Shown: positions 15,028-61,672 of the stretch, piece after piece
How the letters are laid out: every line of letters starts with the position of its first letter
How positions within the stretch are numbered: the stretch's first letter is position 1
Virus record (IMG/VR): IMGVR_UViG_3300028024_000105
Location: 1-64,000 of that record
Length of the DNA stretch: 64,000 nt
Direction: 5' to 3' (one strand)
Origin: a virus
Program-made: the position numbers and the translations under genes
The notes under the pieces: generated by a model
Databases searched by the model: none
What the model was told of the DNA's origin: nothing
Seen by the model: only the letters and a program-made list of their open reading frames with translations

Positions 15028-15097
15028 CGGGAGTGCAGATAGCACGTCTCACCTACAGAGTTTACTGGAACGGATCGAGAACGGAAAGGAGCGAAAC

Positions 15098-16273
15098 ATG
15101 CGGTGCAAGGAAAACATCGTGGACCTGCCGGAGCTGACCCAGCGCCTGAAGACGGAGTCGGCGCGGACCCGGGACCTGCTCGCGCGCGCGGACGTGTGCG
15201 ACGTGCTCACCGACGGCAAGGAGACCCTCTTCAAGGTGAACGGCCGGGCCTACCGGATCGAGGAGCAGACCCACGGCCAGCTCGCGGGCAAGACGGGCGT
15301 GCCCAAGGCGTACTACGACAAGATGAAGCTCGATGCGCCCGAGCTGCTCGCCGAGAACCTGAACCACTGGCTGCACCAGAGCAAGAAGACCCATCTCGTC
15401 CGGCTGATGGACGACGCCGTCCGTGCCTTCCTGTCCGACCGCTACCGCCCGATCAACCACCTGGATCTGGTCACCGTCGCGATGCAGGTCCTCTGCGGGA
15501 TGGACGGGCAGGCCGGGGAAGCCAAGCCCCACGCGCGCGGCGCCCGCTGCATGTCGTGGGACCTGACGCCCACGATGCTCGACGTCCGCTTCGTCAACCC
15601 GGCCATCTGGGTCGACCTGGAGAAGCTCGACGAGGGCCTGCACATCGACACCGACCTGACCGACGACGAGATCGAGAAGCGCATCATGCGGCGCGGGCTC
15701 GCGGTCGACCGCACGGACTGGAGCGACACGACGGTCTACCCGTCGGCGCTGCTCTACAACAGCGAGACCGGCCACGGCGGACTCGGCATCGAACCCGGCC
15801 TGATGGAGGGGCTCTGCATCAACTTCAACTGGTACGGCAAGTCCCTCGAGCAGCGGCATCTCGGCAAGACGCTCGAGATGGACGACATGTTCTCGAGCGA
15901 GACCTACAAGAAGATGAACGCCGTCGTCTTCTCGAAGGCCGCCGACACCTTCCGGTCGGTGTTCGAGCCCGAGCAGTTCCTCGTGTCCTGCAGGCGCTTC
16001 GCGGGCCTGAAGGAAGTCGAGATCGACGTCAAGGACGCGGTCGACAACATCGTCGAGCTGCCCGGCATGACCGAGGGCCTGCGTGACGACATCATGCAGA
16101 CCTACCTGCTCTACAAGTCCCACGGCAAGCGCAAGCACGACAACCTGTTCGACCTGAACCGCGCGGTCACGGAAGTGGCCCAGAAGGTCGAGAACCCCGA
16201 GCAGGCGCTGGCCCTGGAACAGCTCGGCGGCGAGCTGATCCTGACGGGCGGGGATTCGAAACTGATTTCCTGA
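15098..16273 (+). CDS. DUF932-like phage protein
   Basis: QLA..TGVP..YY.KM...PEL...NLN.WL, RAFLSDRY, NSETG.G, C.N; strong SD. Confidence 0.7.
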   Translation: MRCKENIVDLPELTQRLKTESARTRDLLARADVCDVLTDGKETLFKVNGRAYRIEEQTHGQLAGKTGVPKAYYDKMKLDAPELLAENLNHWLHQSKKTHLVRLMDDAVRAFLSDRYRPINHLDLVTVAMQVLCGMDGQAGEAKPHARGARCMSWDLTPTMLDVRFVNPAIWVDLEKLDEGLHIDTDLTDDEIEKRIMRRGLAVDRTDWSDTTVYPSALLYNSETGHGGLGIEPGLMEGLCINFNWYGKSLEQRHLGKTLEMDDMFSSETYKKMNAVVFSKAADTFRSVFEPEQFLVSCRRFAGLKEVEIDVKDAVDNIVELPGMTEGLRDDIMQTYLLYKSHGKRKHDNLFDLNRAVTEVAQKVENPEQALALEQLGGELILTGGDSKLIS

Positions 16274-40396: not shown

Positions 40397-40463
40397 GCAT
40401 CGGATTCCTGTAACGGGAGAGCAGATAGGCCGTCTCATGAGTATGAACGGAAAGGGATTGACG

Positions 40464-40601
40464 ATGAAGACGACCTTCAAGACCCTGCGGCAGTGGATCG
40501 AGTCGAAGTACGGCCGGGGCGTGGTGACCGACATCCGGAAGCTGCCGCGCCAGACCCAGCGCTACCTTCGCTCGCAGTGGCAGGAAGAGGGCAACGCATG
40601 A
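40464..40601 (+). CDS. Small hypothetical protein
   Basis: Class-A promoter and GAAAGG SD. Confidence 0.5.
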   Translation: MKTTFKTLRQWIESKYGRGVVTDIRKLPRQTQRYLRSQWQEEGNA

Positions 40602-42874: not shown

Positions 42875-43078
42875 ATGATGAACACCAAGCCGCCGGTCGG
42901 ATCGCCCGAGTGGGACCAGCAGTACACCTTGGGCTGGTCCGCCGGGCTCGATATCCTGCGCCTGGACCGCCGCGCCGCCTTCAACTGGGAGTTCGAGGTC
43001 TACCGCGCCAACCGGGACCCGTCGGCCTTCGACATGGGCAAAGCTGACGTGATCTCGGAACATCGGGTTGGATTCTAG
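42875..43078 (+). CDS. Hypothetical protein (leaderless)
   Basis: ATG just after the class-A promoter at 42840-42870. Confidence 0.55.
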   Translation: MMNTKPPVGSPEWDQQYTLGWSAGLDILRLDRRAAFNWEFEVYRANRDPSAFDMGKADVISEHRVGF

Positions 43079-43096
43079 GACAGAAAGGACACGACG

Positions 43097-43519
43097 ATGA
43101 CGACCGAACAGGAAGTGACCGACATGATCGCGCGGCAGGTGATCGGCCTGCTGGACTCCACGATGGCGAACCTGCAGACCGCCCGGGAGAGGATCGCGGG
43201 CCTGGGCCCAGTGCTCGCGGTGCATGCACCCGGTGGAGGTCCCGGCCGCCCGTGCTTCTGCAACACCTTCGTCCGGCCGGAGCGCCAAGTCACCAAGCTG
43301 GCGGGCATCGTCGCCGCCAATTACGCGCGCACGGCCGTGCCCCTGGAAGGCACCCTGGAAAGCCTGCACCTGCAGCACCCGGTATATGTTCGCGAGGCCA
43401 TCCGCAAGGCGTTCTTCGACGGCGTCCGGGCCGCTTCGGATCTGAGCGCCGCGCGCCAGAAGTGGCCGGACGATCCGCGCCATGGCAAGGGCGGCTATCA
43501 CGACAACCGGAGGAAATGA
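43097..43519 (+). CDS. Hypothetical protein
   Basis: CAGAAAGGA SD. Confidence 0.6.
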   Translation: MTTEQEVTDMIARQVIGLLDSTMANLQTARERIAGLGPVLAVHAPGGGPGRPCFCNTFVRPERQVTKLAGIVAANYARTAVPLEGTLESLHLQHPVYVREAIRKAFFDGVRAASDLSAARQKWPDDPRHGKGGYHDNRRK

Positions 43520-44055: not shown

Positions 44056-44142
44056 GTCCCGTAGGACGCTCGAGAAAATCGCAATTCTGTAACAATCATG
44101 CAGGTAGAGCGTCTTACCTACATGAACAGAATGGAGACCAAG

Positions 44143-44340
44143 ATGACGGAGGCCCAAGCCCTCAAGGAAGCCCAGCGGCAGGTCCACGGAGTGCTTGCGA
44201 TCAAGAAGTATTTCCGCCTGCGCTACGACGGCCGGAGCGCCGACCGCCTGAACCCCACGCACCACGTCCGGGTGTTGTCCACCCGCAGCGGGTTCCGACC
44301 CTTCACCCTGTTCATCACGGACACGAAGGTGGCCCGGTGA
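44143..44340 (+). CDS. Small hypothetical protein
   Basis: Class-A promoter; in-frame leaderless ATG also at 44122. Confidence 0.5.
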   Translation: MTEAQALKEAQRQVHGVLAIKKYFRLRYDGRSADRLNPTHHVRVLSTRSGFRPFTLFITDTKVAR

Positions 44341-46761: not shown

Positions 46762-46790
46762 AATGCTCGGGACGGCGCGTCCTACGAAAC

Positions 46791-47030
46791 GAGCGAGAAG
46801 CCGACGTAACCCGGGGCTGCACCTGTACGTAGCTGCGCACCGTACAGCAGGGCCTGCCAATACCGGGGTACATCGCTCAAAGACAGCTCGTCGGGCGCGA
46901 ACGCGGGCGAAAACGGCCGTAGCGTGACAGCCGGAGAGACGGCAAAAATTCGCCCTGGTGGTGGCTTTCTGCTGCTTCACCACCTTCGCCGCGTTGGAAG
47001 CCGAGCAGCGTCACGACGCGGACAGGGTTG
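46791..47030 (+). ncRNA. Putative structured ncRNA(s)
   Basis: Predicted TSS G46791 equals the first base of closing stem GAGCGA/TCGCTC(46873-78); further hairpins to about 47030. Confidence 0.55.
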
Positions 47031-49272: not shown

Positions 49273-49392
49273 ATGACGCCGAACAAGCCGTTGACCCCCG
49301 AGCAGGTCCAGCAGGTCTGGGACAAGATCGAGCAGGCCAAGCCCGATCTGCCCGAGAACTCCAAGGACAAGCCGGACCAGCCCAAGCCATAG
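49273..49392 (+). CDS. 39-aa peptide downstream of peptidase
   Basis: GGGAG SD; MTPNKPLTPEQVQQVWDKIEQ... Confidence 0.45.
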   Translation: MTPNKPLTPEQVQQVWDKIEQAKPDLPENSKDKPDQPKP

Positions 49393-49400
49393 TCAGCAGA

Positions 49401-49457
49401 CCTTTCTGTTCTAACCCCGCCGGGAACTTATCGAGACCCGGCGGGGTTTTTTATTTT
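49401..49457 (+). terminator. Intrinsic terminator with anti-leader prefix and conserved loop
   Basis: CCTTTCTGTTC, 12-bp stem, loop AACTTATCGAGA, U tract. Confidence 0.85.
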
Positions 49458-49529
49458 CTATATTCCGAATCATTCAAGATCCCTTCGACCGCGCGTCCTA
49501 CGGGACATGACGGTAGAAAGGAAAGAGGA

Positions 49530-50381
49530 ATGACCATCGAAGTTCGAACCAAGGCACAATTCGAGGCCGCGCTCAAGATTCCCAACTCCATCATCGACAT
49601 CCTGGAGGGCATCTACGAGCTGGTGACGTACGGAAGCGAGGCTCCGTTCATCCGGCTGTTCGGCAAGGCCGAACTGACCGTCGAGGCGCGGGGATCGTCC
49701 CAGCCGCGCGTCGAGGCGTGGGGATCGTCCCAGCCGCGCGTCGAGGCGTGGGGATCGTCCCAGCCGCGCGTCGTGGCGTGGGAATCGTCCCAGCCGCGCG
49801 TCGAGGCGTGGGGATCGTCCCAGCCGCGCGTCGAGGCGTGGGAATCGTCCCAGCCGCGCGTCGTGGCGTGGGAATCGTCCCAGCCGCGCGTCGAGGCGTC
49901 CGGTTTCGTGCAGCTTTCGCTTCTCGGCAAGATCGTCGCGAAAGCTGCAGCGAAGGTCGCCGTGCTGATCGAGGGTGACGGCCCGAAGGTCACGGGCGGG
50001 AAGCAGATCCGCCGCCAGCTCTTCAAGAACGGGAAGGGATGGTGCGAGTATTACGGAGTCCCGGTCAAGGCAGGGAAGGCCATCGTGTTCAAGGCCCTCG
50101 ACAAGGACCTTCGGAGCAGTCACGGTCTCGTCTATCCGGTCGGCGCGACCGTCAAGAGCGACGGCTGGAACAAGAACGAGTGCGATCAGGGACTCCACTT
50201 CATCCCTACGCCCAAGATGGGATACGAGTTCGCGCCGGAGGCCGAGCGGTTCGTCGCGTGTGAAGTCGCCGTGAAGGACATGCTCGTCTTCTCCACCGGC
50301 TCGTACCCGAACAAGGCGAAGGCTCCGGAGTGCAAGGTCCTCTACGAGTGCAACGACGACGGCGAGGAGATCAAGAAGTAG
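49530..50381 (+). CDS. Phage protein with 10-aa beta-repeat region
   Basis: (E/V)AW(G/E)SSQPRV repeats; C-terminal FKA...Y.VG...C..GLHF...K.KA domain. Confidence 0.8.
   Translation: MTIEVRTKAQFEAALKIPNSIIDILEGIYELVTYGSEAPFIRLFGKAELTVEARGSSQPRVEAWGSSQPRVEAWGSSQPRVVAWESSQPRVEAWGSSQPRVEAWESSQPRVVAWESSQPRVEASGFVQLSLLGKIVAKAAAKVAVLIEGDGPKVTGGKQIRRQLFKNGKGWCEYYGVPVKAGKAIVFKALDKDLRSSHGLVYPVGATVKSDGWNKNECDQGLHFIPTPKMGYEFAPEAERFVACEVAVKDMLVFSTGSYPNKAKAPECKVLYECNDDGEEIKK
49681..49899 (+). repeat. 30-bp tandem repeat, about 7.3 copies
   Basis: tcg(a/t)ggcgtggg(g/a)atcgtcccagccgcgcg. Confidence 0.97.
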
Positions 50382-50388
50382 ATCAACG

Positions 50389-50442
50389 CCCTTTTCTTTC
50401 AACCCCGGCGATGCATCCAAGTGTCGCCGGGGTTTTTCTTTT
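50389..50442 (+). terminator. Intrinsic terminator
   Basis: AACCCCGGCGA/TCGCCGGGGTT plus U tract. Confidence 0.85.
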
Positions 50443-50484
50443 CCCACCGTTCGAATTGTGTTTCGTCACCGCGTCTGACGGAGC

Positions 50485-50970
50485 ATGCAAGCGACCCTGG
50501 ACGCGCGGCGCATCCGGCTGACGGCGCCGCCGAGCCATTCGTCCGAGGGTACACCGCCGGTTCTCCTAGACGGCGTCGTGATTGGTCGAGCCCGGCGAAG
50601 CACCAGCCGACTGGTGTTCGGGTACGGCCGGTACATCGTGAAGGTCGGCCACCAGAGCAGGAACGAAGTCGAAGTCTGGGATGGGCTTCCCGATGTAGAC
50701 CGGCCGTACTTCGCGGCCCCAGTGGCGTGGGGGACCGTTGAAGGCGACGTCGAGCGCCGTTGGTGGGTCGCCCAGCGCGTGCTCCCGATCAAGCGTGCCC
50801 TTCAGTGCTACAGCCTGGCCGAGTGGCAGACCGCCTGGGAGGAACTCTATCCCGTGCTTCTGCGCAACGACATCCGCGACGTGCTGTTCGACGAGGTCAT
50901 CGGCATGCCGCGTCCGCACAACTGGACCATCGTCGATGACGCTCCTGTCGTGTTCGATTACGCTTCGTAG
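50485..50970 (+). CDS. Small protein-kinase-like fold protein
   Basis: R.VF...IVK...NEVEVW...D.....N.....PVVFDY. Confidence 0.55.
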   Translation: MQATLDARRIRLTAPPSHSSEGTPPVLLDGVVIGRARRSTSRLVFGYGRYIVKVGHQSRNEVEVWDGLPDVDRPYFAAPVAWGTVEGDVERRWWVAQRVLPIKRALQCYSLAEWQTAWEELYPVLLRNDIRDVLFDEVIGMPRPHNWTIVDDAPVVFDYAS

Positions 50971-50982
50971 CCGGAGACCGAA

Positions 50983-51195
50983 ATGATCCACAGCGTGCAG
51001 ATGCGTCCGTTGCTGAAAGGCGAAGCCTATCCGCCGGAAACCCGGGACATGAACCGGACGCCGCCGAAGCCCGCGCGATGCGAGGGATGCAAGGCGGTCC
51101 ACACGCCGCGCGACCCGCTCTTCAAGGCGACGCCGATGATGGCGCCAGAGTTCATCACGTGCTGGTACTGCTTCCAGATGGGGAAGTCGGGCTAG
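50983..51195 (+). CDS. Small Zn-finger protein
   Basis: CEGC...CWYC; GGAG SD. Confidence 0.5.
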   Translation: MIHSVQMRPLLKGEAYPPETRDMNRTPPKPARCEGCKAVHTPRDPLFKATPMMAPEFITCWYCFQMGKSG

Positions 51196-51416
51196 CTGTA
51201 CTGCTCCGCGTAGGGCTGCAGAGCCTGGATCACGGTAGGTGGGATGTCGATCTCTTCGGTACCGCTGGTCGTGCCCACTTCGAGGGCGAAGGCGAGGGAC
51301 GCCGACTCTCGTCCGCCCGGTGCGAAGACGAACCCCTGGTACTCGCCGGGCTCGCGAGTCGATCCGTCCAGTTCCATCCACCACCCCAAGGGCAGCCTGA
51401 TCTTCTTGTTGGCCAT
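51192..51416 (-). CDS. Hypothetical protein
   Basis: Class-A promoter and CAGAAAGGA SD on minus strand. Confidence 0.6.
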   Translation of the reverse strand: MANKKIRLPLGWWMELDGSTREPGEYQGFVFAPGGRESASLAFALEVGTTSGTEEIDIPPTVIQALQPYAEQYS

Positions 51417-51549
51417 CGTCGTGTCCTTTCTGTTCATGTAGGTAAGACGCCGAGGGCTCTCGTTCGTTACCGGGAATGCAGATAATCGCATTCCGTGTAA
51501 CAGTCATGCAGGTTTGGCGTCTCACTCATGTGAACAGAAAGGAGATCGG

Positions 51550-52998
51550 ATGAACTGGTTCGAGGTCGACAAGAAGGGCCTAGCCAATCTGCTGGGACGC
51601 CGGGGCAAGGCGTTCCTCGTGCACGAGCTGGTCCAGAACGCCTGGGACACGAACGCGACGCGCGTCGACGTGAACCTCGTGTCGCTGCCCGGCCGCAAGC
51701 TGGCCCGGCTGACCGTGGAAGACGACGACCCGGAGGGCTTCAAGGACATCTCGCACGCCTTCACGCTCTTCGCGGAGTCCGCCAAGAAAGGCGACGCCGA
51801 GAAGCGTGGGCGCTTCAACCTTGGCGAGAAGCTCGTCCTCGCGCTCTGCAAAGAGGCGAAGATCACGACGACGACCGGAGGGGTCAAGTTCAGCGACAAG
51901 GGGCGCCAAGTGATCGGCGCCACGACCATGTCCGGTTCCATCTTCGAAGCCCTGATCCCGCTGACCGACGCCGAGTTGGGCGAGATGACCAAGTCGGTCG
52001 CGTGTCTGATCCCGCCCGCCGGGATCGCCACGTTCTACAACGGCGACGCGCTCCTGGAGCGCATGCCGCTCCACGAGTTCGAGATCACGCTCCCGACGGA
52101 GATCGCCAACGCCGAGGGCCAGCTCCGGCGGACCGAGCGCAAGACCAAGGTGCAGGTCTTCGATCCGCAGGATGGAGAGCAGGCCAGCATCTACGAGATG
52201 GGCATCCCCATCGTCGAGACCGAGGACAAGTGGCACTACAACGTGCTGCAGAAGGTCCCGCTCAACATGGATCGGGACAACGTGACGCCGCACTACCTCA
52301 AGACGGTGCGCGCGGCCGTGCTGAACGCCATGCACGAGAAGCTCACGCCCGAGGACGCCAGCACCCCGTGGGTGCGCGAGGGCGCGGCCGACGAGAACGC
52401 CACCAAGGAAGCCACCGAGAAGGTGATGGACCTTCGCTTCGGGAAGAAGCGCGTCATCTTCGACCCCTCCGACCTGGAGGGCAACAAGCTCGCCGTGTCC
52501 GAAGGCTACACCGTGATTCCGCCCCGGTCCCTGAACAAGGACGAGTGGGACAACGTCCGCAAGCACGACCTAGCAAAGCCCGCCGGGCAGGTCACGCCGT
52601 CGCCCAAGCCCTACTCGCCCGAGGGCGACCCGCTCAAGATCCTGCCCGAGCTGGAGTGGACCGACCCCATGAAGCGGGTGGCCGAGTACGCGCGCTGGCT
52701 CGCGCAGGAGCTGCTGGGGAACAACCGCCTGCACGTGATCATCGCGCGCGAGGCAACGTGGCCTTACGGCGCGACCTACGGCATGGATCAGTTGACCCTC
52801 AACCTGGGCCGACTGGGGCACGACTGGTTCAAGTCGGTCGGCCAGCACACGGATCGCTTGCTGATCCATGAGTTCGGGCACCACTACGCGGCGGACCACC
52901 TGTCGAAGGAATACTACGATGCCCTGTGCAAGCTCGGCGCGAAGATGACGGCCTTGGCCCTGCAGTACCCGGAGGTCTTCAAGGGTTTCCGGATCTGA
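51550..52998 (+). CDS. GHKL ATPase with C-terminal HExxH metallopeptidase-like domain
   Basis: ELVQNAWD, EDDDPEG, RGRFNLGEK; LLIHEFGH. Confidence 0.8.
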   Translation: MNWFEVDKKGLANLLGRRGKAFLVHELVQNAWDTNATRVDVNLVSLPGRKLARLTVEDDDPEGFKDISHAFTLFAESAKKGDAEKRGRFNLGEKLVLALCKEAKITTTTGGVKFSDKGRQVIGATTMSGSIFEALIPLTDAELGEMTKSVACLIPPAGIATFYNGDALLERMPLHEFEITLPTEIANAEGQLRRTERKTKVQVFDPQDGEQASIYEMGIPIVETEDKWHYNVLQKVPLNMDRDNVTPHYLKTVRAAVLNAMHEKLTPEDASTPWVREGAADENATKEATEKVMDLRFGKKRVIFDPSDLEGNKLAVSEGYTVIPPRSLNKDEWDNVRKHDLAKPAGQVTPSPKPYSPEGDPLKILPELEWTDPMKRVAEYARWLAQELLGNNRLHVIIAREATWPYGATYGMDQLTLNLGRLGHDWFKSVGQHTDRLLIHEFGHHYAADHLSKEYYDALCKLGAKMTALALQYPEVFKGFRI

Positions 52999-53003
52999 AC
53001 TAG

Positions 53004-53060
53004 CCTTTCTGTTCTGACCCCCGGCAGGAATTTATCGAGACCTGCCGGGGGTTCTTTTTT
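53004..53060 (+). terminator. Intrinsic terminator, paralog of the 49401 element
   Basis: CCTTTCTGTTC, 13-bp stem, loop AATTTATCGAGA, U tract. Confidence 0.85.
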
Positions 53061-53092
53061 CGACATTCCTGCATCGGCGCGTCCTACGGAGC

Positions 53093-61272: not shown

Positions 61273-61672
61273 GCTCCGTCAGACGCGCGGTCGCAGGAAT
61301 TATCGACGCCTGGTGCGGATCAACGTCTTGGTTCGACCCTGCTTCTTGCAGTCGACGCAGGCGAAGCCCACGAGGACGTAGTCGAACGGCTTGGGCTGAT
61401 GTGTGGTGACGAGGAAGTGACAGCAGGAGAAAGGGTGATCGGGATTGCAGCGGTGACGTTCTGGGATCAGCACGAGTAGCGCCACGCTCGCGCGGCACCC
61501 GTCCACTCGAAGCCCATCTTCTCCATCGTCATGCGGTCCGGCAGCGAGAGCCGGTCCGGCCGGATGTCCGTGCCGATGTAGACGCTGTCGTCGGCGACGA
61601 AGAGACCGAGATCCTGGGAGACGGGGATGTACTTCTGCAGGAGCTGCAGGGCCTGGAGGAAATGGCGGCCTT

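Follow-up and report, generated by a model that had tools for sequence, protein, structure and literature searches.

A CU-rich tract beside intrinsic terminators of an uncultured soil phage as a candidate 3' anti-Shine-Dalgarno element

The 3' untranslated region (UTR) of a bacterial mRNA can act on the ribosome-binding site (RBS) at its opposite end. For the icaR mRNA of Staphylococcus aureus this is proven; its 3' UTR contains an anti-Shine-Dalgarno (anti-SD) motif that pairs with the Shine-Dalgarno (SD) sequence of the same message, which blocks initiation and makes a substrate for RNase III (PMC3868564). In Bacillus subtilis, a helix of ~14 bp that links the 5' UTR of hbs mRNA to its 3' UTR changes ribonuclease access (PMC5737220), and distal anti-SD-like sequences repress translation and stability by long-range pairing and are under-represented in genes (Gill et al. 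preprint, PMC12697547). Proven natural SD masking by a 3' UTR is nevertheless limited to very few cases, and none from phages was found in the literature. In the hok/Sok and aapA/IsoA systems, pairing between the 5' and 3' ends keeps the full-length toxin mRNA translationally inert. CpxQ and SroC belong, like NarS, to the small RNAs (sRNAs) that derive from 3' UTRs. The seed of NarS lies just 5' of the intrinsic terminator of its parental mRNA, and it targets the RBS regions of other mRNAs (PMC7038943). This article concerns a CU-rich tract that stands beside intrinsic terminators in IMGVR_UViG_3300028024_000105, an uncultured phage from a soil metagenome; the window analysed is the first 64 kb of this 96.8-kb record (63% GC; completeness 73% by CheckV estimate). 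We tentatively read the tract as an icaR-like 3' anti-SD element that would act in cis on the mRNA of an ATPase, and possibly in trans on a family of leaders; this seems a plausible account, held with some reserve.

The case is clearest for the gene at 51550-52998 (+), which encodes a GHKL ATPase of 482 aa with a C-terminal HExxH motif. It is preceded by what is here called a class A promoter, namely GTAAC-N16-CGTCTYAC followed by a short, SD-containing leader, GAAC(A/G)GAAAGG; in this instance GTAAC occupies 51497-51501 and, after 16 nt, CGTCTCAC occupies 51518-51525 (+). The leader it would drive, GAACAGAAAGG (51532-51542, +), holds the SD and lies at or beside the predicted 5' end of the mRNA; transcription is predicted to start at 51530-51532, which would make this 11-mer the extreme 5' end. 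At the other end of the gene, 5 nt past the stop codon, is the trailer CCTTTCTGTTCT (53004-53015, +), the predicted cis partner of the leader. It runs up to the intrinsic terminator T3 (53016-53062, +), which consists of a 13-bp stem (53016-53028/53041-53053), a loop at 53029-53040 and a T-run (-28.2 kcal/mol, z -5.1). An SD and its exact anti-SD complement are thus found on one mRNA, with the limits of that mRNA taken from promoter and terminator; this is the layout of icaR.

When the 1524-nt mRNA (51529-53052) is folded, 51532-51542 pairs with 53004-53014 in the minimum free energy structure, with a pairing probability of 0.99-1.00, and the resulting 5'-3' helix is separated from the 13-bp terminator stem by a single base. 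When any of five shuffled versions replaces the tract, the mean probability that the SD region is unpaired rises to 0.45-0.72, at a cost of 3-10 kcal/mol. The native duplex energy between the T3 tract and its own leader is matched by composition-preserving shuffles in only 0.1% of trials (p = 0.001).

The complementarity extends beyond this one gene. There are four exact copies of GAACAGAAAGG; those at 49401 and 53004 are its reverse complement, and the other two lie at 51532(+) and 51435(-). Tolerating up to one mismatch brings the number of matches to 10, against 0.82 expected, and none of 100 shuffles reached 10. Besides the leader of the ATPase gene, the family comprises the leader of a divergent unit (51425-51435, -), at the start of a gene that spans 51192 to 51437 or 51419; on the plus strand this site would place a third copy of CCTTTCTGTTC on any read-through RNA. 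Variant leaders GAACGGAAAGG occur at 15079-15089 (+), before the gene 15098-16273, and at 40445-40455 (+), before the gene 40464-40601; at the former the A-to-G change keeps a G-U pair with the tract, and the two commonest leader variants are both A-to-G changes of this kind. A further SD tract, GGACAGAAAGG (43078-43088, +), precedes the gene 43097-43519, and GAACAGAATGG (44124-44134, +), close behind the 44110 class A promoter, makes a weaker target (-13.8 kcal/mol). The claim in an initial annotation of this DNA that the tract is the exact complement of the leaders at 51532 and 51435(-), with variants at 15079, 40445, 43078 and 44124, is thereby confirmed. Among the four exact copies, identity ends sharply at both edges of the 11-mer, and no longer duplicated block is seen.

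Part of the tract resembles the anti-SD of the ribosome itself. The 3' tail of 16S rRNA, which we take from general knowledge of actinobacterial 16S to be CCUUUCU, would pair with AGAAAGG. The match between leader and tract extends 4 nt further (GAAC/GUUC), so mimicry of the ribosomal anti-SD does not explain the whole tract. CCTTTCT is moreover scarce on the plus strand, with 6 sites in 96.8 kb, two of them at terminators. Ranked against the start regions of the 137 genes called by a codon-bias model, the tract shared by T3 and the upstream terminator T1 forms its best duplexes with 15098, 43097, 51550 and 40464, all at about -17.5 kcal/mol; the next-best duplexes have -15.0 kcal/mol and weaker for the T1 tract and -14.0 for the T3 tract. 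The leaders at 51437(-) and 44122 pair with it too. A scan of the whole genome for duplexes with trailers of 17-20 nt was swamped by GC-rich chance matches and is uninformative.

T1 carries the second copy of CCTTTCTGTTCT (49401-49412, +), 8 nt past the stop codon of a 39-aa gene (49273-49392). The terminator itself (49413-49461, +) has a 12-bp stem (49413-49424/49437-49448), a 12-nt loop (49425-49436) and a T-run (-30.7 kcal/mol, z -5.4). The loops are AACTTATCGAGA in T1 and AATTTATCGAGA in T3, with the common 12-nt form AAYTTATCGAGA. The stems differ by replacement of G-C with A-U and of C-G with G-C, by one extra C-G pair and by a change of the closing pair from A-U to G-U; the shared tract and loop and the compensatory stem changes had been described in the initial annotation, and the coordinates and sequences hold, with both hairpins folding perfectly. 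Tract and loop are identical at 23 of 24 positions, in contrast to 25 of 44 in the remainder of the alignment (p = 0.0004) and 19 of 26 in the stems (p = 0.03). This uneven conservation speaks for sequence-level constraint on both copies, albeit from a small sample of paralogous copies. The loop gave no sign of being a second seed against the same target mRNAs, its complementarity energies all lying within the null range, and Rfam holds no family for these terminators.

In the whole 96.8-kb record, a hairpin-plus-T scan finds only five strong intrinsic terminators (49413, 50401, 53016, 80667 and 85008), and a CU-rich 5' flank is confined to three of them, T1, T2 (50401) and T3. These three have stems of 12-14 bp and T-runs, lie on the transcribed strand, begin 5-10 nt plus the tract past a stop codon, and are all built as CU tract, AACCCC/GACCCC stem and T-run.

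If the element works in cis, the following sequence of events may be envisaged. A message for the GHKL ATPase alone would span ~51530 to ~53060, with the SD carried in its first bases, GAACAGAAAGG. As polymerase reaches the 3' end, CCUUUCUGUUC would emerge and form an 11-bp helix with the extreme 5' end, abutting the terminator stem. The finished mRNA would then be closed to new ribosomes, and protein output would be limited to initiation during transcription. The composite structure of ~24 bp may also be a substrate of the RNase III type or protect the 5' end. What the locus itself shows is the sequences, a complementarity beyond chance, a helix predicted to dominate thermodynamically and a conservation that is uneven; the ends of the transcripts, pairing in vivo and any effect on translation are inferred.

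Action in trans would be a different matter for T1. This terminator ends units that start at 46778 (class B, a leaderless promoter type described below) and probably also at the leaderless starts 47247 and 48456, none of which has the class A leader. If functional, the T1 tract must consequently act in trans, and it would do so either as the entire mRNA or as a stable 3' fragment made up of tract and hairpin, with the five or six mRNAs that carry a class A leader as its targets. The properties expected of the seed of a 3' UTR-derived sRNA are present; the tract is unpaired in T3 and weakly self-paired in T1, and the four RBS targets lead the ranking. The two mechanisms put forward in the initial annotation fare differently at the two terminators. 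End-to-end pairing is specific and dominant in silico for T3, and does not apply to T1, whose messages lack the leader; shut-off in trans is physically plausible in silico, as cis pairing is, with the leader family at the top of the ranking. The sequencing runs that contain this stretch amount to one soil DNA run, probably the one it came from, and no RNA run is listed. An extended version, in which stable 3' fragments (seed, terminator hairpin and 12-nt loop) from two class B/C-promoter units shut off all mRNAs with class A leaders in trans, the loop being a handle for an RNA-binding protein of phage or host, strikes us as doubtful. If it were true, a temporal translation switch would be built into the terminators.

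Among the known systems, icaR is the closest. Both have a pyrimidine-rich 3' UTR anti-SD complementary to the SD of the same mRNA, the pairing being proven in icaR and predicted in silico here. The icaR 3' UTR is, however, longer than 100 nt, with UCCCCUG inside it, whereas in the phage only 5-8 nt precede a tract that touches the terminator stem; in addition, the phage tract is complementary to the extreme 5' end of a leader that is very short, and a second phage copy resides on an unrelated message. The hbs mRNA, a short monocistronic message of a Gram-positive organism, offers a long-range helix that joins its two UTRs, the kind of pairing predicted in the phage. The hbs helix, however, tunes how RNase Y cleaves in the leader, and masking an SD is not its main role, whereas the phage SD lies inside the predicted helix. 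Pyrimidine-rich anti-SD-like octamers hundreds of nucleotides downstream likewise pair with the RBS, lower translation and speed decay (PMC12697547). Such sequences are generally avoided in genes (PMC12697547), whereas the phage keeps one at a fixed position beside the terminator.

The 3' UTR-derived sRNAs share with T1, and with a possible trans role of T3, a single-stranded seed 5' of the terminator and several RBS targets. In enterobacteria, however, NarS, CpxQ and SroC rely on Hfq and RNase E; our guess, from the leaderless mRNAs and the type of SD, is that the phage host is actinobacterial and hence without Hfq. The likeness to hok and aapA mRNAs that the initial annotation had drawn fails on their defining features. 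The phage cassette contains no small toxin open reading frame (ORF), its products having 283 and 482 aa, and neither an antisense RNA partner nor an antisense promoter; nor does it have a route for 3' trimming, the tract being protected by the terminator hairpin. It is not a member of that family.

The second terminator, T2 (50401-50447, +), has a 14-bp stem, a 6-nt loop and a T-run (-26.7 kcal/mol, z -7.0). It follows the gene 49530-50381, which encodes a DUF7666 protein of 283 aa and has a long purine leader. The purine-rich part with the SD (49516-49528, +) is covered by an 8-codon upstream ORF, and the CU-rich T2 trailer CCCTTTTCTTTC (50389-50400, +) has generic complementarity to it. CTTTTCTTTCAACC is complementary to GGTAGAAAGGAAAG with two imperfect positions, and its AACC belongs to the T2 terminator stem. 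A fold of the full-length message pairs the T2 tract with the DUF7666 leader with a probability of 0.76, and shuffled tracts pair about equally well. The upstream ORF (49507-49533, +) is itself leaderless, and its TGA stop overlaps the DUF7666 ATG (AATGA); this suggests coupling by termination and reinitiation across the purine leader, and translation of the ORF would melt any helix between tract and leader. Within the DUF7666 gene, 7.4 tandem copies of a 30-nt unit (49679-49899, +) encode a 10-residue repeat, and the assemblies of many related phage contigs break inside this gene.

Several points weigh against reading the tract as an anti-SD element. The free 12-nt T2 tract pairs with its own leader no better than composition-preserving shuffles do (p = 0.13), and that leader ranks 8th of the 137 start regions; T2 appears to be a generic CU tract, and the match to its own leader an effect of CU/AG composition. 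Of the earlier statement that the T2 trailer matches the leader of its own gene (49512), the complementarity survives and the specificity does not. T1 has no cis partner. T1 and T3 are paralogous, as are the leaders, and the exact match may go back to one evolutionary event. The terminators at 80667 and 85008 have no CU tract. Transcription starts are deduced solely from the spacing between promoter and ATG in leaderless genes, and equilibrium folding ignores ribosomes and the kinetics of co-transcriptional folding. In other phages, the homologues of both cassette genes belong to ordinary operons and lack terminators. Those of the DUF7666 protein (<=57% identity) lie within operons whose stop and start codons overlap. 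Those of the GHKL ATPase (~40-53% identity) show no complementarity between tail and RBS above their own background, with the exception of one 40-nt bracket among 14 scanned loci.

That bracket is an observation in its own right. In an unrelated phage contig of 48% GC (L003), the GHKL-ATPase/HExxH homologue is enclosed by a 40-nt inverted repeat (2922-2961/4477-4516) that is 83% complementary and contains a 20-nt perfect core. Its 5' arm ends just upstream of the SD ACAGAAAGGA. It could be a processing stalk or the boundary of a cassette, and it is absent from the 13 other homologue loci.

Searches for relatives yielded nothing beyond chance matches in the collections covered. The 17-mer of the class B promoter gave 8 single chance matches in IMG/VR and no relative; the 16-mer of the loop gave 65 matches, none within a hairpin; a pattern of tract plus stem gave none; and a tract-N-loop pattern gave 45 matches in metagenomes, all in unrelated coding DNA. 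Searches with the flanking peptidase-like protein in viral and metagenome contigs, and with the terminase in viral and genome contigs, were likewise empty.

The absence of relatives that could show constraint leaves room for the view that no RNA-RNA function exists. T1-T3 would then be one terminator family, in which a CU-rich, G/A-poor spacer keeps the hairpin free in a transcript of 63% GC, and the identity of the 11-mers would be short DNA reuse. The common layout of the three terminators, the composition effect at T2, the missing cis partner of T1 and the clear duplication and inversion of promoter-leader modules in this genome all agree with this view. It accounts less well for an identity that stops sharply at the 11-mer on both sides of all four copies, for a tract G that is matched by a leader C and so goes beyond CU-richness, and for a tract and loop that were kept while the stems turned over; anti-SD-like 7-mers are otherwise scarce on the sense strand and are expected to be costly (PMC12697547). 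We regard an absence of RNA function as possible but rather unlikely. It has also to be considered that GAAC(A/G)GAAAGG is a site on DNA, the operator of a phage regulator at class A start points, with the inverted copies at T1 and T3, and perhaps the loop, as auxiliary sites for a roadblock or for looping. In class A promoters the motif does occupy +1 to +12, where it is conserved beyond the needs of an SD, orientation is irrelevant to a DNA site, and the 12-nt loop, for which no RNA target was found, could have a protein or DNA role. Yet the motif lacks symmetry and does not occur as paired half-sites at the terminators, all of its copies fall within predicted transcripts and are so oriented as to be complementary at the RNA level, and at 43078 it is an internal SD far from any promoter; with no candidate regulator identified either, an operator seems improbable.

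The tracts might, finally, serve the minus strand. They could be the SDs of genes encoded there, or an antisense promoter embedded in the terminator could have its start region in them. The initial annotation had raised the former as a challenge to its own reading. Below T1, an ATG 10 nt past the minus-strand AGAAAGG does open a 40-codon ORF; this ORF (49390-49268) has, however, a GC content at third codon positions (GC3) of 0.33 and a codon log-odds of -63 bits, compared with 0.95 and +29 bits in the overlapping plus-strand gene and a genome median GC3 of 0.88. Neither T2 nor T3 offers a usable start; T3 has none beneath it, and T2 just a TTG ORF of 16 codons. In favour of an antisense promoter, the loop in reverse complement, TCTCGATAAGTTCC, is similar to TCGATAATTCC, the -35 element of class B, and has TCGATAA and TTCC in common with the promoter at 61285 in its -35 region. 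Scored with a matrix built from 28 promoter sites, however, the minus strands of T1, T2 and T3 reach -13, -8 and -7 bits, far below the real promoters; 27 of the 28 training promoters score >=17 bits, and the lowest, 51449(-), scores 11.5. A matrix of the -35 element alone gives 4.7 bits to the reverse complement of the T3 loop (53041), and at most 2.2 bits to that of the T1 loop; the value of 2.2 is the minus-strand maximum around T1, and it lies over the trailer tract, not over the loop. Both minus-strand readings are rejected; service to that strand is very improbable indeed.

The setting of the element is a genome with a promoter grammar of its own. A core, CGTC(C/T)(T/G)AC, stands 5 nt upstream of many start codons that have no SD, so the messages are leaderless; the long form of this core occurs 16 times in the window, with 0.4 expected. 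Class B promoters consist of a TTCGAnA-like element, ~14 nt, CGTCCTAC, N5 and ATG, and are leaderless; a third form is GTCCAAG-N5-start. Class A promoters resemble those of ECF sigma factors. No clear sigma factor was recognised in the 73%-complete record, and no single-subunit RNA polymerase; on the latter ground, a T7-type class II termination signal was rejected as an identity for the terminators. A class B core, CGTCCTAC-N5-ATG (49494-49509, +), would restart transcription past T1, with equivalents after T2 (50472) and T3 (53080). Since each of the three terminators is followed by a class B promoter within 40-60 nt, the region is a row of insulated transcription units. The two terminators beyond the window follow the gene 79296-80639 (terminator 80667) and the likely major capsid gene 84020-85000 (terminator 85008).

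Promoter-leader modules are duplicated and inverted within this genome. The class A promoter of the ATPase gene has a mirror-image copy on the minus strand (GTAAC at 51470-51466, CGTCTTAC at 51449-51442), and the two divergent modules form a 28-nt inverted repeat (51424-51543) that is 82% complementary. Near its centre is a palindrome, GTTACCGGGAATGC/GCATTCCGTGTAAC (51466-51501), that could be a shared operator. If plus-strand transcription from the promoter at 50472 reads through, the proximal copy at 51425-51435 could mask the SD at 51532 locally on that RNA. Two class A units, 44122-44146 (+) and 51437-51413 (-), have an ATG at the predicted transcription start, then AACAGAA(A/T)GG and, 21 nt downstream, another ATG in the same frame; the two in-frame ATGs make dual initiation possible, leaderless and SD-led. 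Elsewhere, the ~400 nt of non-coding DNA that separate a kinase-like gene from the class B promoter at 46778 contain a full-length Rfam match (46952-47028, +) to CyVA-1 RNA (RF02965), with 49.4 bits against a gathering score of 41.4.

An anti-SD element beside the terminator could be put to use in high-GC Gram-positive hosts as a portable module that controls expression. Its retention in the phage is informative because such sequences are normally selected against. If real, it would be a very compact form of control from the 3' end, in which 11 bases set against a terminator close the mRNA and tie the yield of protein to transcription.

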